A stretch of 51,994 bases of DNA from a virus (taxonomy: Duplodnaviria > Heunggongvirae > Uroviricota > Caudoviricetes): IMG/VR virus record IMGVR_UViG_3300045988_149344; one strand, 5' to 3'. The translations under genes were made by a program, and so were the position numbers. How positions within the stretch are numbered: the stretch's first letter is position 1; every line of letters begins with the position of its first letter. Positions 9,777 through 51,994 of this stretch are shown piece by piece. The notes under the pieces are model-generated. The model saw nothing but the letters and a program-made list of their open reading frames with translations. It was not told the DNA's origin and ran no database searches.

Positions 9777-9905
9777 TTACCCGATTCTACGAGTTGTCAT
9801 TTGTTACCGGTCAGTCTACACATTTCAGATGCTGCGTTAAAAAACCCAAGTACTTCAAGTAGCACATCGTCATCAACACCCAGCCCCAAGATACGGTGAT
9901 AAAAT

Positions 9906-10940
9906 TCAAGCCTTAAGAGGCTTTGTGTATGTTCGTGTAATCCATCCAGTAATAAACTCGTCCCCTGATTTAACCTGCACGAAAAGCCATTGGCGATCTT
10001 TTTTATCTAAAACAGCCACTATAGTATTTTTGCCAATGCATTCAATCACCTCACTATTTATAGAAGGACTGACGTGTAATCTTACGTTCTCACCAGTTAT
10101 AAAACGAAAACCATTGAGATCTTCCCAACTAATTTCTTTGTTTTCTTTAATTAATTGTTGTTTTGATATTGGTTTATCCTCAAACAGAGATATAAAATAT
10201 GATTCTGCCTTGTGTATTCCCAGCAAGGTTTTCTCTTTTCCGTAATCAATAAAAGCACCAAACACAACTTGAGAAAATATAACCATTAGTAACCATTGCA
10301 GTGGATAAGGAAGCTCTTTAAATGAATCAACAAACTTTGAGCTAGGTTTATTTAATCCTTTATTTTGAACATTACTTTTGGTGTGTGATGTTTCAGTAGC
10401 ACCTTCAGCATAAGCCTGCGCAATAGATGAAATCCCCTGCTCTATTATTTGATGTAATGAAGCATTTCTTGTTCTAGCATAGTGATCTAGTACTTTCTTT
10501 ATGTCTTGGCTTACATCTATTTTATAACTTGCACTTTGTTGTAATTCTTTAAGTATCGCTTGCATGTTATTTAAACCAGCTTGCTTATTAAGCACCTCAA
10601 GCTGTTTTCGTAATGGCATAGCTATTTCGGCCTGTTTCCTTAGCATTTGAATATATCTATTTGCATCATGAGGGAAAAGAGCCTGAGTCTGTTTCTGTAA
10701 AATCGCGATATGTTCACGATACTTGCTGCCTATTCCAGCCAAGTTCGGTATACTAGCCAATTGTTTTCGAAGAGAGTTACTAATTACAGCTTGTCTATTC
10801 AATCTTGGCATATTTTGAAAAGAATGTTTTTCTATTCCTAATTGTTTTTGCAAGATCGCTACGTGATCTTTGTATGATGGAATGAGCACTGACTGTTTAT
10901 ACAGCAACTTCAACTCATTAGAATTAGTAATTTTTGTCAT
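9906..10940 (-). CDS. Membrane-anchored protein with N-terminal coiled-coil repeats, one TM helix and a C-terminal SH3b-like domain (344 aa)
   Basis: AT-rich ORF; repeated ILQKQ/LRKQ segments; hydrophobic stretch LQWLLMVIFSQVVFGAFI; C-terminal RFITGENVRLHV...GWI resembles bacterial SH3 domains. Confidence 0.45.
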   Translation of the reverse strand: MTKITNSNELKLLYKQSVLIPSYKDHVAILQKQLGIEKHSFQNMPRLNRQAVISNSLRKQLASIPNLAGIGSKYREHIAILQKQTQALFPHDANRYIQMLRKQAEIAMPLRKQLEVLNKQAGLNNMQAILKELQQSASYKIDVSQDIKKVLDHYARTRNASLHQIIEQGISSIAQAYAEGATETSHTKSNVQNKGLNKPSSKFVDSFKELPYPLQWLLMVIFSQVVFGAFIDYGKEKTLLGIHKAESYFISLFEDKPISKQQLIKENKEISWEDLNGFRFITGENVRLHVSPSINSEVIECIGKNTIVAVLDKKDRQWLFVQVKSGDEFITGWITRTYTKPLKA

Positions 10941-11014
10941 ATTATTCCATTTCTATAATAGAATATTACGCAACCAATGTTTTATTGATTGCGTTAATCT
11001 TTAACACAGAAAGA

Positions 11015-11491
11015 TCATTTGCCTCGTTTAATACATCCATCCATTTTGGCTTGTTGATACAACTTACTTAGCCCAGAAAGAGGGAATGTAGCAATTTTTT
11101 CATTATCAACATAAGCATCAATCATATTAGCATTTGAATCTGCTGCATCTTGCCAAAAGGCATACCACCAAGAATCTCCAACCATTGATCCAAGATTGCT
11201 AAAAGGATATTGATCACCATCTATAGTTAATACTATTTTATTCTTGTCAGCATTATACTCTTTTTTATTATTCGACGAACTTAGCAACAAGCCTAAACTA
11301 CCTGCACTATCTGGTGAACCATACATGAATCCCATATCACATAAAAAACTTATCTTATCACCATTATGATTATGGATTGTATATTCTCTCCCCCCTCTCT
11401 CTTCAATTACATTCCATTGTAGAGGATCAATTTTTGCAAATGTTCCTGCTGAAACTAACGATACAAATAATAAAAACCATCTCATATTCAT
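11015..11491 (-). CDS. Secreted/periplasmic protein with signal peptide (158 aa)
   Basis: N-terminus MNMRWFLLFVSLVSAGTFA is a typical Sec signal peptide; AT-rich; two Cys residues in the mature part. Confidence 0.45.
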   Translation of the reverse strand: MNMRWFLLFVSLVSAGTFAKIDPLQWNVIEERGGREYTIHNHNGDKISFLCDMGFMYGSPDSAGSLGLLLSSSNNKKEYNADKNKIVLTIDGDQYPFSNLGSMVGDSWWYAFWQDAADSNANMIDAYVDNEKIATFPLSGLSKLYQQAKMDGCIKRGK

Positions 11492-11513
11492 TCTTTTCGC
11501 TTCTTATCTGTAA

Positions 11514-11864
11514 TTATTCTGCAATATCATTTGCCCATTGCACGGCAGCAAAATGAGTACCCAAACCACTCAGGAAAGCAATTACCCCCAAAACAATACT
11601 TGCTGCTGTTGATTCAAACAAAGTACCAATACTATAGCCAATAGCTCCCCATACTAAGCTAAATACAATCATCAATGGTATTGCTAGAAATTTTATTCTT
11701 AAACTAAAAATCAGTCCAAGAAAAGAACCGCCAAAGGCCCACCATGATTTAGACATTAAACCTATCAGTATTGACAGAATTCCTATTTCAATAAAGAGAA
11801 TATTAGATTGCTCTTCATTGAATTTCGCATTTGTTACACCTTTACGAACATGTTCAGATGACAT
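11514..11864 (-). CDS. Small multi-pass inner-membrane protein (116 aa)
   Basis: Three to four hydrophobic helices; AGGAG ribosome binding site upstream of ATG at 11864-11862; first gene of an AT-rich three-gene unit. Confidence 0.45.
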   Translation of the reverse strand: MSSEHVRKGVTNAKFNEEQSNILFIEIGILSILIGLMSKSWWAFGGSFLGLIFSLRIKFLAIPLMIVFSLVWGAIGYSIGTLFESTAASIVLGVIAFLSGLGTHFAAVQWANDIAE

Positions 11865-11913
11865 GATTAACTATCTCCTGCCACAGATAAAACGCCTTAA
11901 AATAACATTTTGT

Positions 11914-11942
11914 AGCATAAAGTTTCACCATGCAATGGTCAA
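11914..11942 (-). promoter_or_regulatory. Sigma70-like promoter for the AT-rich module (-35 TTGACC, 17-bp spacer, -10 TATGCT)
   Basis: Read on the minus strand: TTGACC (11942-11937), 17 nt, TATGCT (11919-11914), about 45 nt upstream of the 116-aa gene RBS. Confidence 0.35.
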
Positions 11943-11953
11943 AATCTTTGACC
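11937..11953. promoter_or_regulatory. Perfect 17-bp palindrome GGTCAAA-ATC-TTTGACC overlapping the -35 box
   Basis: Exact inverted repeat; each half contains a TTGACC hexamer, one per strand, in the divergent region between the AT-rich module and immI. Confidence 0.4.
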
Positions 11954-12010
11954 CATATCAATTAAACTCATACATTTTAGTTACCAGAGAAATAATTTAC
12001 ATGGTTGCAA

Positions 12011-12027
12011 GTTGCTCTAATTATTTT
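12011..12027 (+). promoter_or_regulatory. C1 repressor operator-like site (14/17 match), candidate Op51
   Basis: GTTGCTCTAATTATTTT versus consensus ATTGCTCTAATAAATTT; located upstream of the icd-ant region. Confidence 0.4.
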
Positions 12028-12099
12028 ATTTTTTTAGCTTCATATGCTACATTAACTTGCTTGCGTGCTAATGCATTTTCGGTTTATCCTAAACAGGCA

Positions 12100-12176
12100 T
12101 CTTAGTAACACGGATGCCGGGATTGGAACCCCGGATAATGCAAAAGGCGACATAGACGCCAAAAGCGTCTTTTTTT
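12100..12176 (+). ncRNA. Candidate c4-like antisense RNA of immI (boundaries uncertain)
   Basis: About 75-nt structured segment upstream of icd: hairpin CCGGGATTGGAACCCCGG, then hairpin AGACGC-CAAAA-GCGTCT plus T6 (12154-12176). The loop sequence GATTGGAACC recurs at 12305-12314, and GTTCCAACC, complementary to GGTTGGAAC and one mismatch from the loop complement, lies at 12276-12284. Confidence 0.3.
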
Positions 12177-12361
12177 GTGTCATGCCATCGCACAACCATA
12201 CGTAGCACATAGCTCCGAGATCAATGGTAGTGCTGGCTGGGCTGCCGAAAGGCAGGCCGGTTCCCTTTTGCGCCGGTAGTTCCAACCCAGTCAGTGCTAC
12301 CGCCATTGAGATTGGAACCTCACGCGGTAGCTCCTTAAATTAGCAAAAGGAGGCTGCCATT

Positions 12362-12583
12362 GTGGCTACTATCCCTACCCCTACTCATCCTGAATTTATC
12401 TGGCGCTTTTACTCCTGCCAAAAACACCACTATCACTTCGTTATCGCAGCAACAGAAGACGAAGCACGCTCTCAATTGCCTGATGGCCCCTGCATTTTTA
12501 CTGCCCGTTTTTCAACTAACTCGCGCAATTCACTTAGTTACTGGAGCCTCCCCTTCTCTGCCGACGTTCAGGGGGGTTTATGA
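12362..12583 (+). CDS. icd: Icd-like small protein (73 aa), GTG start, overlaps ant start
   Basis: 73-codon ORF ending 4 nt after the ant ATG (translational coupling), as in P1 immI. Confidence 0.5.
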   Translation: MATIPTPTHPEFIWRFYSCQKHHYHFVIAATEDEARSQLPDGPCIFTARFSTNSRNSLSYWSLPFSADVQGGL

Positions 12584-13989
12584 AAACACCTCTCGTCACC
12601 CGTAATGAAATAGCCGAAGCGATCGCCTTGCATACTGCCTGTATGCCGACACGGGAGATCCCCGGCGCAATTGCTAACTATTTCATGATAACCAGACGTT
12701 TTTATACCCGAACAGATAAGGCTGTGATCAACAGGCTACTGATAGCCGAGATCAGGGATTATTTGATTGAACAAGGACGTCTACGTTACGCAACAGTGGC
12801 AGCAGAAATGAGAAAGGAGGCACATAGAATGACCGGTAATAATTTAAATGTTGAAAAAACAGCACCTGTTGCTTCAGCTACGCCATCACCAGCTGTGAAT
12901 GTTATCTCCAACACTGGAGACACAATCGACAGCCAGACACTGTTAAAGATGGTCAATGAAGCGCGTAAGTTATGTGGGGAACCAGAGGTTCGGAACAACA
13001 AATTCATCGAAAAAATACTCGACGAATTAGAAGGTGAGGACGGTTACACAAAAAGTGCAACCGTGCCGCCAGGTGGCGGTACGCCTATGGTTGTCATAAC
13101 CATGACCTACAAACAAGCCCTGCGAGTTGCCGCGCGCGAGTCAAAAGCGGTCCGCCGTTCGCTACATACCATGATTCAGGCATTGGAACCTATAAATGTT
13201 GAAAATCATCCTGATGAAATTCCCGTTCTGGAATGGCAGGGAGTACGCGTCGTGACAACCGAGACTCTTGCTAGAGGGTATGGCACTACACCTACTCGTA
13301 TTCAGCAGAACTACAATCGCAATGAAGAACGATTTGTAGAGGGTAAACACTTCTTTAAAATCAAAGGAGATGAGATAAAAAGTTTGCGACTATCTTTTAG
13401 CGAGTTGCAAATTTCCCCCAAGACCAGATCCTTAATACTCTGGACCGAACGCGGAGCGGCACGCATGTCTAAGATCGTAGACACAGAGCAAGCGTGGGCA
13501 TTCTTTGAAAAACTGGAAGACAGCTACTTCCGGCAAAAAGAACAGCAACCGGTCGCAATCCCCCAGACGCTTCCCGAAGCTCTGCGCCTGGCTGCCGAGC
13601 TGGCTGAACAAAAGCAGCTACTGGAACAGAAAACCCACCAGCTAAATCAACAGCTGGTGGCCGCAGCCCCTAAAGTCGATTTTGCCGACCGGGTATCAGC
13701 GGCTAATGGAATCCTGATCGGGAACTTTGCAAAGGTCGTTGGACTTAAGCAAAACGCCCTTTTCTCATGGTTGCGCCAGAACGGCATTCTCATGGCTTTT
13801 GGTGCGCGCAAAAACGTACCGCGCCAGCAGTACATTAACGCCGGGTATTTCACGGTGAAAGAAGTGGTGCTGGATGATGAAAATGGCTACCAGATACGGC
13901 TGACGCCCCAATTAACGGGTAAAGGCCAGCAGTGGTTAACTCGCAAGCTACTTGATGCTGGTTTGTTAAAACCAGTAGCAATAGGTTAA
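12580..13989 (+). CDS. ant: Antirepressor Ant (469 aa) with Bro-N/ORF6N-like middle and KilAC-type C-terminal domain
   Basis: C-terminal 130 aa nearly collinear with the KilA C-terminus (PEALRLAAELAEQKQ...GKGQQWL); immediately follows icd. Confidence 0.7.
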   Translation: MKTPLVTRNEIAEAIALHTACMPTREIPGAIANYFMITRRFYTRTDKAVINRLLIAEIRDYLIEQGRLRYATVAAEMRKEAHRMTGNNLNVEKTAPVASATPSPAVNVISNTGDTIDSQTLLKMVNEARKLCGEPEVRNNKFIEKILDELEGEDGYTKSATVPPGGGTPMVVITMTYKQALRVAARESKAVRRSLHTMIQALEPINVENHPDEIPVLEWQGVRVVTTETLARGYGTTPTRIQQNYNRNEERFVEGKHFFKIKGDEIKSLRLSFSELQISPKTRSLILWTERGAARMSKIVDTEQAWAFFEKLEDSYFRQKEQQPVAIPQTLPEALRLAAELAEQKQLLEQKTHQLNQQLVAAAPKVDFADRVSAANGILIGNFAKVVGLKQNALFSWLRQNGILMAFGARKNVPRQQYINAGYFTVKEVVLDDENGYQIRLTPQLTGKGQQWLTRKLLDAGLLKPVAIG

Positions 13990-14002
13990 CAAAAGAAAAA
14001 AA

Positions 14003-14028
14003 CCTGCCAGCAAACTGGCAGGTTTCTG
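14003..14028 (+). terminator. Hairpin terminator-like element after ant
   Basis: CCTGCCAG-CAAA-CTGGCAGG followed by TTTCTG; the T-tract is short. Confidence 0.4.
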
Positions 14029-14067
14029 AGCAGATCGTCCAACCCGATCTGGATCGAGCCAGAAAAA

Positions 14068-14084
14068 TTTGCTCTAATAAATTT
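14068..14084 (+). promoter_or_regulatory. C1 operator (16/17) upstream of kilA-repL, candidate Op53
   Basis: TTTGCTCTAATAAATTT, 70 bp upstream of the kilA start. Confidence 0.6.
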
Positions 14085-14153
14085 CGTTTTCTAAGTGCAA
14101 AGAATCACCATTTCGAGCTGGTGATTGAAGGTTGATGCAAATTTGGAGAAAAA

Positions 14154-14954
14154 ATGCAACAAACATTCAATGCGGATATGAATATATCAAACCTTCATCA
14201 AAATGTCGATCCTTCAACCACTCTGCCCGTTATTTGTGGTGTTGAAATTACGACCGACCGCGCTGGCCGTTACAACCTTAATGCTCTACACAGAGCGAGC
14301 GGACTCGGTGCCCATAAAGCGCCAGCTCAATGGCTAAGAACGCTGTCAGCTAAACAGCTCATCGAAGAGCTTGAAAAAGAAACTATGCAGAATTGCATAG
14401 TTTCGTTCGAAGGCCGTGGCGGCGGCACTTTTGCCCATGAATTGCTCGCTGTGGAGTACGCAGGCTGGATTTCTCCCGCGTTTCGGCTGAAGGTAAACCA
14501 GACATTTATCGACTATCGAACCGGAAGATTACAACCTGCTATTCCGCAGAGTCTCCCTGAAGCTCTCCGTTTGGCTGCCGACCTGGCAGAGCAAAAGCAA
14601 CGGCTGGAGCAAAAAATGCTTATGGATGCACCTAAAGTCGAATTCGCTGAACGCGTTGCTACCGCCAGCGGGGTTCTAATCGGCAACTATGCCAAAGTGC
14701 TCGGCCTGGGCCAAAACTATCTCTTCACCTGGTTGCGTGATAACGGAATTCTGATCGCAACCGGTGAACGCAGGAACGTCCCCAAACAAGAATACATATC
14801 CCGTGGGTATTTCACCCTTAAAGAAACCGTGATCGATACAAGCAATGGAAGCAGGATTTCTTTCACGACTCGTATAACCGGCAAAGGTCAGCAGTGGCTG
14901 ATGAAGCGATTGCTTGATGCTGGTGTGCTGGTACCTGTCGCGGCAACGCGCTAA
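14154..14954 (+). CDS. kilA: KilA (266 aa), KilA-N domain protein
   Basis: 266-aa ORF with GGAGAAAAA ribosome binding site; N-terminal KilA-N-like region; C-terminal domain shared with Ant; directly followed by repL. Confidence 0.75.
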   Translation: MQQTFNADMNISNLHQNVDPSTTLPVICGVEITTDRAGRYNLNALHRASGLGAHKAPAQWLRTLSAKQLIEELEKETMQNCIVSFEGRGGGTFAHELLAVEYAGWISPAFRLKVNQTFIDYRTGRLQPAIPQSLPEALRLAADLAEQKQRLEQKMLMDAPKVEFAERVATASGVLIGNYAKVLGLGQNYLFTWLRDNGILIATGERRNVPKQEYISRGYFTLKETVIDTSNGSRISFTTRITGKGQQWLMKRLLDAGVLVPVAATR

Positions 14955-14983
14955 CAGACGTAGTAAGAACCACCAGCATTGTA

Positions 14984-15829
14984 ATGCTGGCTAAAGTCAC
15001 TTTCCTGAGCTGTATAACGATGAGCGATTTTACTTTTTCTGGCTATGAATTGGCCTGCTTTGTAACACACTCCGGTCTATCCCGTAGCGCCGGGCATATC
15101 CTGTCGCAATGTGCAAATCTCGCGGCAACAACCAGTGAATACTTCATTCACAAGCCTCACCGCCTGATCGCGGCAGAAACTGGTTATAGCCAATCAACCG
15201 TCGTTCGTGCATTCCGTGAAGCTGTAAACAAAGGAATCCTGTCTGTAGAGATTGTTATCGGCGATCACCGTGAACGTCGCGCTAACCTGTACCGGTTTAC
15301 ACCATCCTTTTTGGCCTTCGCACAACAAGCCAAAAATGCGCTGATTGAAAGCAAATTAAAGATCTCTTCAGCGGCAACCAAGGTTAAAGCTGTTCTCGCT
15401 AAGACATTGGCTTTATTTAATTTTTTATCCACACCCCCATGTCAAAATGATACCCCCTCCCCCTGTCAGGATGACGTGGCAATAAAGAATAAGAAGTCAC
15501 AAGTTAAAAAAACAAAAAGATCAGTTTCCGGCGGTGCCGGAACGAGCAGACTCAAAAAATTGACTTCATGGATCGCTGAGACAAAAGCAAAGGCTGACAA
15601 TCTGCGGTTATCCAAAAAACGCGCACAAAAACATGAGTTCAAGCAGAAAGTAGAGGCGGCAGCGCGGAAATATGCTTACCTGAAGAACAAGCGTTCTCCT
15701 GATATTGGCGGGGTATCAAACTTCGATAATTTGCCGCATTGCATGACGGTAAACGAAGCTCTTAATGCGGTTTTAGCCAAAAATAAAGATAACGAAAAAT
15801 GGGGTATACCGGCAGGATTCAGAGGGTGA
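14984..15829 (+). CDS. repL: RepL lytic replication initiator (281 aa); oriL expected inside the gene
   Basis: 281-aa ORF downstream of kilA in one C1-controlled unit; Lys-rich C-terminal half; arrangement and size match P1 RepL. Confidence 0.7.
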   Translation: MLAKVTFLSCITMSDFTFSGYELACFVTHSGLSRSAGHILSQCANLAATTSEYFIHKPHRLIAAETGYSQSTVVRAFREAVNKGILSVEIVIGDHRERRANLYRFTPSFLAFAQQAKNALIESKLKISSAATKVKAVLAKTLALFNFLSTPPCQNDTPSPCQDDVAIKNKKSQVKKTKRSVSGGAGTSRLKKLTSWIAETKAKADNLRLSKKRAQKHEFKQKVEAAARKYAYLKNKRSPDIGGVSNFDNLPHCMTVNEALNAVLAKNKDNEKWGIPAGFRG

Positions 15830-15879
15830 TAGATTGCTCTAATCTGGAGTCACCTGGCGTTTTCAGTTTGAGGTCGGAG

Positions 15880-16125
15880 ATGCAATCTGATTTTTTACAG
15901 TTAGCGATCGCTTTTGCAGGATATGTTTGTATTGGCTTCTGTGTATACATGATCAGCCGAAAAATGCTTGTCGATATCGACCGCAAAGAACGAGCAGAGG
16001 AGATCTTAGTATGGATTTTCTTTGGCGCGGTCTGGCCATTAGGGATCATGTTTGCTGCAACATTTCTTCTGATGTGGATATTCACCCTTCCAGGTGATTT
16101 CTATAGAAAAAAAGCCAGACATTGA
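15880..16125 (+). CDS. Small two-TM membrane protein (81 aa), downstream of repL
   Basis: ATG at 15880 with a GAGG ribosome binding site; two hydrophobic helices; the track ORF 15799-16125 has no convincing upstream start. Confidence 0.4.
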   Translation: MQSDFLQLAIAFAGYVCIGFCVYMISRKMLVDIDRKERAEEILVWIFFGAVWPLGIMFAATFLLMWIFTLPGDFYRKKARH

Positions 16126-16307
16126 TACAATCGCTGCGGGTGCTTGAGGCTATCTGCTTCAGGCATTACCCGACAAGCAGATAGAAGAAAGCCCCAGATA
16201 ACATTACGCGTCCTGCAAGACGCTTAACATTAATCTGAGGCCATATCTATGCTTAGCATACGTAGATTAGCCCTCTCCCCTTTTTAGGAGCAAGGAATTT
16301 TTTACTG

Positions 16308-16904
16308 CTATGCCGCCTTTCCAATTATGGATTCAGCGACCAGAACAACCCCATGCTTACTTCGATCTGGGTGTTCACTCCATATCTCGGATTCAGGAAT
16401 ACTTACCCCGTCATAGCAAACACGTTCGCCGTCAAACGGGTAATACTGAGCGGCATCGGTGTCGAGGATAAACACTTTTAGCTCGGAAGAGCGACGGGCG
16501 ATGTGTTGCCAAAGAGCTTTTCCACCTTCGTATTGCTCATTATCACTGAGCAAAACAACACCAGCTTTTGAGGCTACGGTTTCGTAAACAAAAGTAGCTA
16601 AACCGACATCCCGGACGGTTCCATCAACCACGATACCTTCAATCTGGGCAACATCGCTATCCTCCCAGAACTTCCTTACCAGTACGCCTTCAAGCTGCGG
16701 GCGACGTTGAAGTTCAAGAGTAGCGACAACCTTATGGCGCATATCACCATCGATAACAGAAGGCGCAGCCTCTATTACAGCTGCAAATGGGGTTTTGGAA
16801 TCCCATATAACCTGGTAAAGCACACCCTGGATGGTAACTCCGTCCAGGATCGAAAATCGACGAGCGACAGTACCCGGGGAGTACGACATTGGAATCACAG
16901 CCAT
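16308..16904 (-). CDS. Hypothetical protein (198 aa)
   Basis: Start set to the internal ATG at 16904, which has an AGGGGG ribosome binding site 9 nt upstream; preceded by an intrinsic terminator and an AT-rich promoter region. Confidence 0.4.
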   Translation of the reverse strand: MAVIPMSYSPGTVARRFSILDGVTIQGVLYQVIWDSKTPFAAVIEAAPSVIDGDMRHKVVATLELQRRPQLEGVLVRKFWEDSDVAQIEGIVVDGTVRDVGLATFVYETVASKAGVVLLSDNEQYEGGKALWQHIARRSSELKVFILDTDAAQYYPFDGERVCYDGVSIPESEIWSEHPDRSKHGVVLVAESIIGKAA

Positions 16905-17031
16905 TTTAGAGTCCCCCTTTAACAGTACAGGCACAAACATCTACCTCAATAATTGTAGTTTATTAGAACATTAATAATCTAACATAAAACTCAAGACAAT
17001 GTTATCGATGCATTCTTATATAAAATAGTTA

Positions 17032-17058
17032 TAAAAAAAGCTCCCGAAGGAGCTTTAA
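17032..17058 (-). terminator. Intrinsic terminator after the tube-like gene
   Basis: Minus-strand AAAGCTCC-TTCG-GGAGCTTT followed by a T-run. Confidence 0.55.
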
Positions 17059-25109: not shown

Positions 25110-25395
25110 GATGTGTGCTGGAGGGAGAATAAAAGTCTAAGATGTGCGATAGAGGGAAGTCGCATTGAATTATGTGCTGTGGAGGGATCGCTGGTATCAA
25201 ATATGTGTGCTGGAGGGAAAGACAGAGAATTACATGTGCGCTGGAGGGAAAAACTGATGGACAGATGTGTGCTGGAGGGAAAGTCTGGGCAAACTGCGGG
25301 GCGTCCCCCTCCAGCGCACATCAAAAACAGGAAATTGGACAAGCCTTCCCGGCAGCACACATTTTTTGAATGCAGCTGCCCTCCAGCACACACTT
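25110..25395. repeat. incA: nine 19-bp RepA iterons (six direct, three inverted)
   Basis: Repeats of GATGTGTGCTGGAGGGAAA and variants on both strands, immediately 3' of repA. Confidence 0.85.
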
Positions 25396-26254
25396 ATTCG
25401 GGGAGTTTCAGCTTTGGATTGCGAGAATGGACGATTACAAAACTTTCCCGGCCTTTCTTCTCAATTGAACAGTCGAGATAGCCGATTGTTTTAAGCTGTT
25501 CTATCGCTTTCTTAATGATACGGTTTTGCTCGCCAACAGCTGACTGCAAAGCCAGGCGCTCACGGATTCGCGCGAACGATAGCGGCAACGGGTTCTGCGG
25601 AAGGCTTTCGATGAAAGTGTAAATGGCTTGTGCAGCTTCTTTCTTCGGAAGGGCACGCAAGGCGTGGTGTTGCAACAGAACGCGATAATCAAGCTGGAAC
25701 AGCTCCCACAACTTCGAATCAGCCTCCAGCTCTATCAGATCAAGGTCAGCATCAAAACGCCCGACCTTCAGCAGACCAGTCTGATAGCCGCCTTTAGCAT
25801 CTTTTCCGCGCTTAAAAGCGATACCCTTGTTACGCAAGCGTCCAAGTGATTCATGAATGGTTAAACGCAGTTTCGCATCCAGACGTTTTGAGGGGAAACC
25901 ACAGGCTTTAGCGAATTCCTGAAACGATAACTGGATGGTGTTTGAGGACAAGCCGTATTTGCTGAACGCGTAGATGACACCGATCCACGTTTTGAAATCA
26001 GTATCCATATCGAGTCGAGGACCGGTGATTTTAATATCATCGTAACCCTCGGCTTTAGCTATCTCCAGCTGGGAAAACGCTTTGGTGGCATCAATCTCTT
26101 TACTTTCTCCTTTGCTCTTTGATGGCTTCGGCACGAATACCCCCAAGCGCATCAACGCTACAGGCTGCACAGTGTTGTTTGAATTAACTGTTAGTTCTTT
26201 TGCCTTACTTTCAATGTCTGCGTAAAGAATATCGGAGATAAATGATTGATTCAT
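25394..26254 (-). CDS. repA: RepA plasmid replication initiator (286 aa)
   Basis: 286-aa ORF flanked by iteron arrays on both sides; P1-type plasmid replicon. Confidence 0.9.
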   Translation of the reverse strand: MNQSFISDILYADIESKAKELTVNSNNTVQPVALMRLGVFVPKPSKSKGESKEIDATKAFSQLEIAKAEGYDDIKITGPRLDMDTDFKTWIGVIYAFSKYGLSSNTIQLSFQEFAKACGFPSKRLDAKLRLTIHESLGRLRNKGIAFKRGKDAKGGYQTGLLKVGRFDADLDLIELEADSKLWELFQLDYRVLLQHHALRALPKKEAAQAIYTFIESLPQNPLPLSFARIRERLALQSAVGEQNRIIKKAIEQLKTIGYLDCSIEKKGRESFVIVHSRNPKLKLPE

Positions 26255-26312
26255 ATTACTTTTTCTGAATTGTGTGGATAGTTTTTATAAGTGGTGATAA
26301 CTACCCAGGCTT

Positions 26313-26540
26313 TCCCGTCAGCACACATCCTATATCCCGCCAGCACACATTAGCAACCCGTCAGCACACATTTTTATCCCTCCAGCACACATCGTTTTCC
26401 CTCCAGCACACATCGCGATACACTTCTAAGCCAGACGTGGCGCGGCCTGCAACGATCAGGGATCTATATGGATCTAATTGGGATCTGTATGGACCTGATT
26501 ATTGGATCTACCCAGTGGATAATGTGGATAAGTGAAAAAC
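26313..26540. other. oriR: five incC iterons, five GATC sites, tandem DnaA boxes
   Basis: Five CCAGCACACAT-type iterons at 26313-26414; GATC cluster at 26455-26510; TGGATAATGTGGATAAG (two TTATCCACA-type DnaA boxes on the other strand) at 26513-26534. Confidence 0.8.
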
Positions 26541-26580
26541 CGGCCACTGAGGACCGATTTCTGTGAAGAGTTGAAGCGAA

Positions 26581-26805
26581 TTAGTTGTCGTTTTCCGTAC
26601 CTACTTCTTCGATCAACAAACTACTTGTATAGATGCGTAACGTATCACCTTTGTAGAGGAATTGATAACCAACACCTCCTATGGCAGGGAGGTCGGGGAA
26701 CATTTCAGAAGCAACCCCAGAGCAAATCACGGCGATACAGTCATCCCGCTGTACATCCTTACGCTCTGTACTCAAAGTTTGCTCTTCCCCGATTGCCTTT
26801 GTCAT
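26581..26805 (-). CDS. Hypothetical small protein (74 aa)
   Basis: ORF with GAGGAG immediately upstream; in the same frame as the 48-codon ORF at 26836-26982, separated by a single TAA. Confidence 0.3.
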   Translation of the reverse strand: MTKAIGEEQTLSTERKDVQRDDCIAVICSGVASEMFPDLPAIGGVGYQFLYKGDTLRIYTSSLLIEEVGTENDN

Positions 26806-26835
26806 CTCCTCATCTTCGTACGCAACAGGGATATA

Positions 26836-26982
26836 TTAAATCGCATCAGGCGTTTTGATACCCAGTTCTTCAGCAATCTCGAACGCCTGTTTAAATTGAT
26901 CTGACCCAGGATATCCAACGGTAATACTCTCAATTTCGAACAAAGAAGTAGCGTTGTTTATTTCTTGTTTAACCGCAAACAT
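26836..26982 (-). CDS. Hypothetical small protein (48 aa), not in ORF track
   Basis: ATG at 26982 to TAA at 26838-26836; same frame as the downstream 74-aa ORF. Confidence 0.25.
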   Translation of the reverse strand: MFAVKQEINNATSLFEIESITVGYPGSDQFKQAFEIAEELGIKTPDAI

Positions 26983-27052
26983 GTTGTTTGTCCTTAGTGG
27001 CTTCCTGCCAAAGTAAAGTCATGAGTGTTGATATTACGATTTCTACAGTTGA

Positions 27053-27412
27053 TTAAATCTGCTCGCTGAGCTTTTGCTTCAGCAGATAACCTTCCAGCGG
27101 CCAGATTTTCTCAATGGCGTTCTTACGGGCCACCTTACGGCCAATCTCCGCGTCGAAATTTTCAGGGCTGGCACAGGCGCTTTCCCCGGTAACAATGAAT
27201 CCATTGCACAGCACCAAGACACAGATGGTCAGGCTACGCGTAGAGGGATGAACAGACAGCACCTCACGAACGCCTTCGTGCGCAGCGCGAATGCCGTCAA
27301 AAGCTGTGAAATAATGCTCTTCGGCAATCACACTCTCGATGTGATCAGGAGTCAGGCGTGGTGCTGTTTTGCCTTTGGCCAGAATCTCTTTTTCAATTTC
27401 CATATCGGACAT
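27053..27412 (-). CDS. Hypothetical conserved phage protein (119 aa)
   Basis: Compact ORF upstream of the plasmid origin; no diagnostic motif recognised. Confidence 0.4.
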   Translation of the reverse strand: MSDMEIEKEILAKGKTAPRLTPDHIESVIAEEHYFTAFDGIRAAHEGVREVLSVHPSTRSLTICVLVLCNGFIVTGESACASPENFDAEIGRKVARKNAIEKIWPLEGYLLKQKLSEQI

Positions 27413-27423
27413 AGTTTTTCCTT

Positions 27424-27756
27424 TTAGTTACCGCTGATAGCACGGTTGTAATCATTAACGTTGCGATTCTTCCTGTTAATCCCCTTCAGCATCGTTTCTG
27501 TATCGAGGATATACGCTGGCAGATCATCAAAATATTCACTGCTAAACTCTGGCATTCTGCACATAAATGCACTTTTGGGGGCAGGGTGGTTAACCTTTGT
27601 CGGCGTCGGCGTTAAATTCGCTGATCGACTCCCGGAGCAACCGCTGAGTGTCAGCAGGAATGCGCTGGCGAACATTACCCGCCGCAACCAGTTGTTTCTG
27701 AACTTCAGCTTTTCGTTCCATTTGCCTGTCAGCATACTTGGCTTGTTCTGATTCAT
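27424..27756 (-). CDS. Lipoprotein with Pro-rich mature region (candidate o-spanin)
   Basis: Signal peptide ending in lipobox LSGC; mature part contains TPTPTKVNHPAP; AGGAAG ribosome binding site before the first ATG; its 5' end lies inside the upstream gene in another frame. Confidence 0.45.
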   Translation of the reverse strand: MNQNKPSMLTGKWNEKLKFRNNWLRRVMFASAFLLTLSGCSGSRSANLTPTPTKVNHPAPKSAFMCRMPEFSSEYFDDLPAYILDTETMLKGINRKNRNVNDYNRAISGN

Positions 27757-28012
27757 TTTTCACTTCCTGGCTGTGAAAATGTTGCTCTGCTTTGTTCATC
27801 GTCTCAATGGTCTGGTTAAGATCCATTATTGACTTATCACGTTCCTTAACAGCCTGATCAAGACTGCCAATTTTCTCTATGGCTTGCTTTAGCTGATGAC
27901 GTTCCCATGCAAACCCAGCACCAACAAGTGCGCAAATCAGAACAAGAACACCAGTAGCAGCAAGTTTCTCCTTCAAAGACAAAGCTGTTTTTAACGTAGA
28001 AAAGAATGACAT
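27590..28012 (-). CDS. N-terminally membrane-anchored coiled-coil protein (candidate i-spanin), 140 aa
   Basis: ATG at 28012 with an AGGAGG ribosome binding site 5 nt upstream; N-terminal TM (AATGVLVLICALVGAGFAW) then charged helical region; the lipoprotein gene starts within its 3' third. Confidence 0.45.
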   Translation of the reverse strand: MSFFSTLKTALSLKEKLAATGVLVLICALVGAGFAWERHQLKQAIEKIGSLDQAVKERDKSIMDLNQTIETMNKAEQHFHSQEVKNESEQAKYADRQMERKAEVQKQLVAAGNVRQRIPADTQRLLRESISEFNADADKG

Positions 28013-28051
28013 GTCTTCCTCCTGAAGAAAAATTATCAATGAAGTCCTTTG

Positions 28052-51397: not shown

Positions 51398-51817
51398 ATG
51401 AACAAGATTGACTATCAGGCACTGCGTGAGGCGGCAGAGAAGGCAACGTGGGGAGACTGGGACTCATATAAACCACACCGTGGCGCACGTGGTTATGAGG
51501 TCCGACTAAGTAGTCAGGCCATTGCGCAACACGTTCTGAAAAACAACGCTGAATTTATTGCTGCCTTTAATCCAAAGATTGCTTTGGCACTACTGGATGA
51601 ACGGGAAAGGAACCAGCAATACATCAAATCCCGCGACCAGGAGAACGAGGATATTGCACTAACGGTAGGGAAGTTGCGCGTTGAGCTGGAAGCAGCAAAA
51701 TCAAAACTCAACGAGCAGCGTGAGTATTACGAAGGTGTTATCTCTGATGGGAGTAAGCGCATAGCAGAGTTAGAAAGTGGTTCTCAGGCACAAAAGTTAG
51801 TTGAAGCAATCAGGTGA
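51398..51817 (+). CDS. Ead/Ea22-like family protein, C-terminally truncated by IS1 (139 aa)
   Basis: N-terminus MNKIDYQALREAAEKATWGDW; the stop codon TGA (51815-51817) lies inside the IS1 terminal inverted repeat. Confidence 0.5.
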   Translation: MNKIDYQALREAAEKATWGDWDSYKPHRGARGYEVRLSSQAIAQHVLKNNAEFIAAFNPKIALALLDERERNQQYIKSRDQENEDIALTVGKLRVELEAAKSKLNEQREYYEGVISDGSKRIAELESGSQAQKLVEAIR

Positions 51818-51994
51818 TGCTGCCAACTTACTGATTTAGTGTATGATGGTGTTTTTGAGGTGCTCCAGTGGCTTCTGTTTCTATCAGCTGTCCCTCCTGT
51901 TCAGCTACTGACGGGGTGGTGCGTAACGGCAAAAGCACCGCCGGACATCAGCGCTATCTCTGCTCTCACTGCCGTAAAACATGGCAACTGCAGT
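51813..51994 (+). mobile_element. IS1 insertion sequence, left end (element continues beyond window)
   Basis: Exact IS1 terminal sequence GGTGATGCTGCCAACTTACTGATTTAGTGTATGATGGTGTTTTTGAGGTGCTCCAGTGGCTTCTG... Confidence 0.9.
51868..51994 (+). CDS. insA: IS1 InsA, N-terminal part (partial at window edge)
   Basis: GTG start; translation [42 protein letters not shown]. Confidence 0.85.

Follow-up and report, generated by a model that had tools for sequence, protein, structure and literature searches.

In bacteriophage P1, the genes ppfA and mlp have been catalogued as a spanin pair since the work of Summer et al. (2007; J Mol Biol 373:1098). Table S1 of Kongari et al. (2018; PMC6139136) lists them (P1, NC_005856.1) as a two-component spanin of the overlapped ("ovl") type, gp064 and gp063, this being the sole spanin entry for P1 in that survey table. 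There, the i-spanin gp064 is a 140-aa protein with 104 periplasmic residues, a lone Cys in the transmembrane domain (TMD) and the ribosome-binding site (RBS) AGGAGG; the o-spanin gp063 is a 110-aa protein with a 39-residue signal, LipoP cleavage at position 39, and one periplasmic Cys. More recently, P1 ppfA and mlp were described as partly overlapping genes with a spanin role predicted from their features, citing Summer et al. (2007), and were placed in "yet another unlinked operon," apart from lyz/lydD and lydA/lydB (Bednarek et al., 2022; PMC9025707). Unlinked spanin genes have thereby already been described for P1, as an atypical trait of its lysis. In the same report ppfA is called the o-spanin; on sequence features and the table of Kongari et al. 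(2018), these labels are swapped and ppfA encodes the predicted i-spanin. Moreover, in comparisons of P1-like phage-plasmids, mlp and ppfA were within the 21 most conserved genes (PMC9603915).

Among the other described systems, lambda Rz/Rz1 is the experimental prototype, and it resembles the P1 pair in predicted topology, i.e., a type II helical inner-membrane protein together with a small Pro-containing outer-membrane lipoprotein encoded in the +1 frame. In lambda, however, Rz1 is wholly embedded in Rz within the S-R-Rz cassette, and mature Rz1 has about 40 aa, against 71 aa for mature Mlp. The lambda Rz dimer is stabilized by intermolecular disulfides; since PpfA has no periplasmic Cys, disulfides of this type are impossible in PpfA. 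The P2 genes lysB/lysC overlap in the same manner as ppfA/mlp, with the o-spanin gene extending beyond the end of the i-spanin gene, but they lie inside the Y-K-lysA-lysB-lysC lysis cassette, whereas ppfA/mlp is unlinked. In T4, the lysis genes are scattered in the genome, which makes this phage a second case of unlinked spanin genes. The T4 genes pseT.3/pseT.2, a separated two-component spanin, provide a precedent for spanin genes located away from holin and endolysin genes, although they do not overlap and are compared here by gene arrangement. T4 is the example of the "separated" architecture in Kongari et al. (2018; PMC6139136).

The gene pair in a P1-like phage-plasmid

By its sequence, the window (the whole 51,994-nucleotide stretch of DNA analyzed) is a P1-like phage-plasmid of the genus Punavirus. 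It is collinear with P1-like genomes, and almost end to end with its nearest relative, Escherichia phage vB_EcoM-813R1, and covers approximately the part between the tail genes and the pmg region, replicon included. An 851-bp probe was 100% identical to vB_EcoM-813R1, while P1 presented 99.2% identity to the probe across 731 bp containing ppfA/mlp. At the protein level, the 140-aa product was 100% identical to P1 PpfA and the 110-aa lipoprotein 98.2% identical to P1 Mlp, from which it is separated by two residues, V33A (in the signal peptide) and M92K. On these identities, the pair at 27424-28012 is ppfA/mlp of bacteriophage P1, catalogued before, and identity together with synteny with gp064/gp063 places it in the P1 PpfA/Mlp spanin family (family "P1" in Kongari et al., 2018). 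The same pair is carried by P1, P7, RCS47, SJ46, JL22, and other P1-like phage-plasmids. P1 and the window share the 167-nt overlap, the RBS elements, and the position of the pair between upfB and the oriR/repA replicon; they differ in the gene downstream of mlp, which is of the gp49/66 family in the window and upfA in P1.

In this context, ppfA/mlp very probably constitutes a two-component spanin of the P1-like phage-plasmid in the overlapped arrangement, with a predicted role in disrupting the outer membrane of the host as infection ends. The spanin reading rests on prediction, and is supported by the comparisons presented below. The preliminary description of this DNA had already read the locus as overlapping i-spanin and o-spanin genes lying apart from the remaining lysis genes, in agreement with the published, equally predictive, description of P1 ppfA/mlp. 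Because the pair is known, its identification carries little weight as a discovery; its practical value lies in the annotation of public records. While the RefSeq name of mlp is "Rz-like spanin" and several P1-like records label the pair Rz/Rz1, the RefSeq name of the i-spanin gene product is still just "PpfA," and the o-spanin CDS is missing from ON470617.2, the nearest GenBank record. Coordinates of the pair and of its neighbors are given in Table 1.

Table 1. Features of the ppfA/mlp locus, in order of transcription (positions are those of the window).
Feature	Position	Strand	Description	Basis or remark
upfC	28849..29133	-	First gene of the leftward cluster; PAAR-like, resembles T4 gp5.4	P1 RefSeq annotation and note
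upfB	28052..28897	-	Directly upstream of ppfA; phrog_1559, unknown function	P1 annotation
Shine-Dalgarno AGGAGG of ppfA	28018..28023	-	5 nt before the ATG	Same RBS in Kongari et al. (2018), Table S1
ppfA	27590..28012	-	Predicted i-spanin (140 aa); type II topology in the inner membrane, long helical domain in the periplasm	ORF, P1 identity, phrog_89
Predicted TM helix LAATGVLVLICALVGAGFA	27908..27964	-	ppfA codons 17-35	Top Kyte-Doolittle 19-residue window, 2.35; helical in AlphaFold2
AGGAAG Shine-Dalgarno-like element of mlp	27763..27768	-	Within ppfA, 6 nt before the mlp ATG	In Kongari et al. (2018), Table S1
Doubly coding overlap	27590..27756	-	167 nt; last 56 ppfA codons, and mlp signal peptide and N-terminal mature part	
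mlp	27424..27756	-	Predicted o-spanin; 110-aa outer-membrane lipoprotein precursor, mature 71 aa	ORF, P1 identity, phrog_30284
Lipobox L37-S38-G39-C40 of Mlp	27637..27648	-	Cys40, predicted lipidated first mature residue; Ser at +2	
Phage_gp49_66 family gene, 119 aa	27053..27412	-	Last in the cluster; replaces P1 upfA	PF13876, E 1.1e-33
oriR, P1-type plasmid origin	about 26311..26546	-		Mapped from the P1 annotation via blastn alignment

The ppfA gene (423 nt) runs from an ATG at 28012 to a TAA at 27592-27590. In its product, residues 17-35 are the sole strongly hydrophobic segment (Kyte-Doolittle), preceded on the N-terminal side by K8, K14, and K16, and the other 104 residues contain 36% D/E/K/R, one Pro, and no Cys. 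A single-sequence AlphaFold2 model of PpfA predicts helices at 4-116 and 120-138, with a break at R117-I-P119 (mean pLDDT 80.4). Both features expected of an i-spanin are found in PpfA, i.e., a single N-terminal TM segment in a predicted type II topology (N-in, C-out) and a periplasmic domain that is mostly alpha-helical in the model; a coiled-coil oligomer is putative. The 140-aa protein with an N-terminal TM helix, a charged periplasmic region, and an AGGAGG RBS, as outlined in the preliminary description, was present in the sequence.

The mlp gene, from an ATG at 27756 to a TAA at 27426-27424, begins 256 nt into ppfA (256 = 1 modulo 3, i.e., in the +1 frame) and runs 166 nt past the ppfA stop, an overlapping +1-frame layout that corresponds to the overlapped class of two-component spanins; the proposal that a lipoprotein gene starts inside ppfA in another frame is thus borne out. 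As expected of an o-spanin, Mlp carries a predicted signal peptidase II signal with a lipobox Cys and no Asp at +2. Its n-region comprises 27 residues, which is unusually long, and the entry in Kongari et al. (2018; PMC6139136) bears the remark "Too long signal sequence." The mature protein has one more Cys, C66, and six Pro (8.5%), four of them within the first 25 residues. With six Pro in 71 residues, mature Mlp is merely moderately Pro-rich, so that of the lipoprotein initially proposed the LSGC lipobox stands, and the Pro-rich mature region has to be toned down.

Regarding the genetic context, the P1 gene order upfC-upfB-ppfA-mlp-upfA-oriR-repA is preserved in the window except for upfA. 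A gap in homology to P1 extends from 26547 to 27419 and is occupied by the Phage_gp49_66 family gene, which starts 11 nt past the mlp stop and is also present in ON470617.2. With repA at 25394-26254 and oriR adjoining it, this single gene is all that intervenes between the pair and the origin, and the location beside a plasmid origin, noticed previously, is correct.

Relationships, lysis-gene separation and late transcription

Profile comparisons assigned both partners to Rz-like spanin families. PpfA matched phrog_89 (E 5e-25), phrog_739, and phrog_214, and Mlp matched phrog_30284 (E 2.8e-55) and phrog_456 (E 3.7e-5), each of them a PHROG of this category. Furthermore, Mlp was similar to the P2 o-spanin LysC (37% identity over 68 residues, E 4e-8), in an alignment that keeps the lipobox region, the second Cys, and an MP motif. 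In curated models, PpfA scored 18.2 bits (E 0.0023) with TIGR03495 (LysB), below the cut-off of 92.75, and the scores with NF038368 (LysC; 14.9 bits) and PF23793 (11.8 bits, E 0.24) were likewise below their cut-offs of 27; a BLASTP comparison between PpfA and P2 LysB gave no significance. Since the LysB/LysC cut-offs were not reached but Mlp aligns with LysC at E 4e-8, the family appears, from sequence comparison, as a distant relative of P2 LysB/LysC on the o-spanin side, and not as a member. As for lambda, a Pfam search at E up to 1 returned no Rz or Rz1 family among its matches, BLASTP of PpfA against Rz was not significant (E 0.27), and the match of Mlp to Rz1 (E 0.006), covering the signal peptide and Pro stretch only, was not counted as significant. 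Taken together, the unreached curated models and the lack of similarity to lambda Rz/Rz1 in these searches argue for ppfA/mlp as a separate sequence family within the two-component spanin class.

Location within a lysis cassette, which is a usual but non-defining trait of spanin genes, was not observed. When the 52-kb window was searched by tblastn using P1 Lyz and LydA-E, lambda S/R, and P2 Y/K/LysA as queries, no match was obtained, in line with the original remark that no holin or endolysin lies in the window. In a comparison of the P1 17-37 kb segment (lyz/lydD/lydE, lydC/lydA/lydB) with the window, an IS1 fragment was the only match. In the closest genome (a 99.6-kb record), lydC/lydA/lydB lie at 31.4-32.5 kb and ppfA/mlp at 98.2-98.8 kb, and the site between ssb and pro, which in P1 holds lyz/lydD, is found at approximately 42.7 kb.

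The pair appears to share its timing of transcription with lysis genes. Table 2 presents log fold changes reported for wild-type cells infected with P1vir (RNA-seq; PMC8201110, Table S1). In these data, transferred here from P1 to a near-identical element, ppfA and mlp have values like lyz, lydA, and the morphogenetic genes, and unlike the early genes, which denotes late expression.

Table 2. Reported log fold change of P1 transcripts at 10 and 30 min in wild-type cells (PMC8201110, Table S1).
Gene	Group	10 min	30 min
mlp	ppfA/mlp cluster	4.15	10.53
ppfA	ppfA/mlp cluster	5.57	11.25
upfB	ppfA/mlp cluster	4.12	11.07
upfC	ppfA/mlp cluster	4.86	10.63
lyz	Known late	6.05	11.35
lydA	Known late	5.21	11.77
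Head gene 23	Known late	5.44	12.07
uhr	Neighboring early or prophage	8.62	11.06
hrdC	Neighboring early or prophage	9.40	11.98
parA	Neighboring early or prophage	9.46	11.46

As to how the cluster is switched on, a late promoter pattern of the Lpa type (a -22 box plus a -10, built from P1 LPpro, LPlyz, and LPdar, with up to two mismatches) had no match on the minus strand of 27900-29400. In a generic scan for sigma-70 promoters and terminators, matches were no more frequent than in shuffled sequence, and the promoters annotated in the P1 record (P1ppfA and P2ppfA, inside upfB) are all predicted sigma-70 ones. With no recognizable Lpa-type promoter at the cluster, a late signal of an undescribed kind might drive ppfA/mlp.

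Regarding the requirement for the pair, plating efficiency under CRISPRi knockdown was 1.3 and 1.2 (ppfA) or 0.24 and 0.19 (mlp), and both genes were scored non-essential; the plates contained 5 mM Ca2+ and 5 mM Mg2+, and lambda Rz was scored essential in the same study. This outcome counts against the spanin reading, as do the missing Lpa-type motif, the curated family cut-offs that were not reached, the long n-region of Mlp, and the lack of periplasmic Cys in PpfA. Because no plaque defect followed, ppfA/mlp are perhaps dispensable; the knockdown may also have been incomplete. We consider it unlikely, on the whole, that the late-transcribed cluster of upfC, upfB, ppfA, mlp, and the next gene is driven by an undescribed late-expression signal, or that the pair is dispensable because P1 has another route to breach the outer membrane.

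The same promoter and knockdown results could be read in favor of a role outside lysis, according to which ppfA/mlp would form an envelope complex whose likeness to spanins is merely topological, acting in superinfection exclusion, as an aid to tail-tip penetration or DNA entry, or in a prophage-expressed envelope function tied to plasmid maintenance. The surroundings of the pair fit such a role, with a cluster headed by the PAAR-like, T4 gp5.4-like upfC and adjoining the plasmid replicon, not lysis genes, and so do the curated LysB/LysC and Rz models that were not reached. Nevertheless, late-type transcription, low at 10 min, argues against a prophage or early function, and further observations count against a non-lysis role: PHROG spanin profiles cover both partners (E 5e-25 for PpfA), Mlp is directly similar to P2 LysC (E 4e-8), and the +1-frame overlapped layout is a described two-component spanin arrangement. 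In addition, with no other P1 spanin in the table of Kongari et al. (2018), P1 would otherwise be without a spanin. Consequently, we assign a low probability to a non-lysis function.

For the two-component spanin reading, we infer the mechanism by analogy with Rz/Rz1-type spanins. PpfA would insert into the inner membrane, leaving its N-terminus cytoplasmic and extending its long helical domain into the periplasm, while Mlp, once exported, would receive its lipid at Cys40, be processed by signal peptidase II, and reach the outer membrane, in its inner leaflet, via the Lol pathway, since its +2 residue is Ser, not Asp. Joined via their periplasmic ends, both proteins would bridge the periplasm as a complex passing through the meshwork of the peptidoglycan. 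Once the holins/pinholin (LydA, LydC, LydD) and the SAR endolysin Lyz, encoded elsewhere in the genome, had destroyed the wall late in infection, the PpfA-Mlp complexes thus released would undergo a conformational change and finish lysis by fusing or disrupting the outer membrane. Given that the late RNA profile is shared with lyz and lydA, co-timing stands in for linkage, and coordination with the other lysis genes would be achieved through shared late transcription timing rather than physical linkage.

Coding in both frames and the start of mlp

Selection on both reading frames was assessed in related loci drawn from collections of genomes and viral contigs (n = 83) and in Cronobacter phage JK004, the sole divergent relative found, which has the same neighboring genes. 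Pattern scans of genomes and viral contigs for distant ppfA/mlp relatives recovered only P1-like elements, with at least 96% identity, and tblastn against phage genomes added only JK004. Both ORFs were intact in all 83 loci, with the upstream mlp ATG always at offset 256. In three of them, a 6-nt indel leaves one protein without DA and the other without TP, and both frames stay open. The LSGC lipobox was unchanged throughout (83/83), and JK004 has LSAC.

Compared with JK004, protein identity was 59% for PpfA and 65% for Mlp. Differences by codon position, counted in the frame of each gene itself, were biased to third positions, with 25/23/48 in the ppfA-only part and 10/6/24 in the mlp-only part, where 19 synonymous and 10 non-synonymous codon changes were counted. 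Nucleotide identity was higher in the overlap (76%) than in the ppfA-only (62%) and mlp-only (70%) parts, reaching 83% in the overlap from mlp codon 24 onward. These conservation patterns identify ppfA/mlp as a genuine coding pair in both frames, beyond chance ORFs. That ppfA alone is real and mlp an accidental open frame in and beyond it, as the missing annotation in ON470617.2, the unusual length of the Mlp n-region, and the lack of a Pfam family at threshold for Mlp might suggest, is scarcely credible and already contradicted by the conservation data, i.e., the ORF and lipobox retained in 83/83 loci, the identity, synonymous excess, and third-position bias toward JK004, the conserved SD-like element, and the tolerated 6-nt indel, as well as by the homology of Mlp to P2 LysC.

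With respect to the mlp start, the preliminary description had placed it inside the 3' third of ppfA, which is true just for an internal ATG at 27675 (Met28); the conserved start lies 61% into ppfA. The upstream ATG with its SD-like element was retained in 83/83 loci and in JK004, which has AGGAGG at the site of the AGGAAG of the window. Met28 is absent in 3/83 loci and in JK004, where it is replaced, and was rejected as the conserved start; since it is not conserved, the upstream ATG is taken as the conserved mlp start, as in the P1 annotation and the table of Kongari et al. (2018). A TTG at Leu24 (27687), which aligns with the start of P2 LysC, was also rejected, JK004 having CTG there. Mature Mlp is identical for any of the candidate starts.

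Genomic company and timing of the predicted spanin genes

The cluster holding the spanin pair begins with upfC, whose product is labeled in RefSeq as a PAAR-motif protein with 31% identity to T4 gp5.4; ppfA and mlp (the predicted i-spanin and o-spanin genes) therefore seem to be clustered with a gene that probably encodes a structural protein of the tail tip. A late-type RNA-seq profile has been described for the entire upfC-upfB-ppfA-mlp cluster (PMC8201110). This profile contrasts with our motif search, in which no P1 Lpa-type late promoter motif (a -22 box AAGTGACT, followed by a -10 TANNNT) was found upstream of the cluster, at 27900-29400 on the minus strand.

Genes flanking the spanin pair in the window
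Feature	Position	Strand	Basis
upfC, first gene of the cluster	28849-29133	-	RefSeq annotation
Phage_gp49_66 family gene, 119 aa	27053-27412	-	PF13876, E 1.1e-33

The gene located between mlp and oriR differs from P1 upfA; its product is the Phage_gp49_66 protein. This gene, also present in vB_EcoM-813R1, is spanned by a break in P1 homology (26547-27419) and falls within the repA-upfA region, which has been reported to be hypervariable across P1-like phage-plasmids (PMC9603915).

Annotation and variation of the pair

The spanin pair has been unevenly annotated. The i-spanin is still named only "PpfA" in RefSeq P1, and in the closest GenBank genome (vB_EcoM-813R1, ON470617.2, 98176-98776) PpfA is annotated without a CDS for the overlapping lipoprotein gene. 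Moreover, the labels were swapped in a previous study, where ppfA was called the o-spanin and mlp the i-spanin (Bednarek 2022; PMC9025707).

Among the related loci L009-L091, three carried a 6-nt deletion near the end of ppfA that leaves both frames open, with PpfA lacking "DA" at its C-terminus and Mlp lacking "TP" within its TPTPT stretch, and one presented an Mlp C-terminus longer by 8 residues. A PpfA 99% identical was further identified in L009, a 5.9-kb contig (JAFAFU010000017.1) of a "Bacillota bacterium" metagenome-assembled genome, which is most likely P1-like enterobacterial DNA placed in the wrong genome bin.

Collinearity elsewhere in the window

Collinearity with vB_EcoM-813R1 was interrupted or weaker at ~9805-17034, corresponding to the sim/c4-icd-ant/kilA-repL-rlf region, where three gaps were seen (approximately 9806-12391, 13164-13647, and 15844-17033), the first two separated by a block at 92% identity (12392-13163). 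The alignment with this phage ends at 51812, and the final 184 bp of the window (51811-51994) are 100% identical to one IS1 end as in P1, in the opposite orientation.
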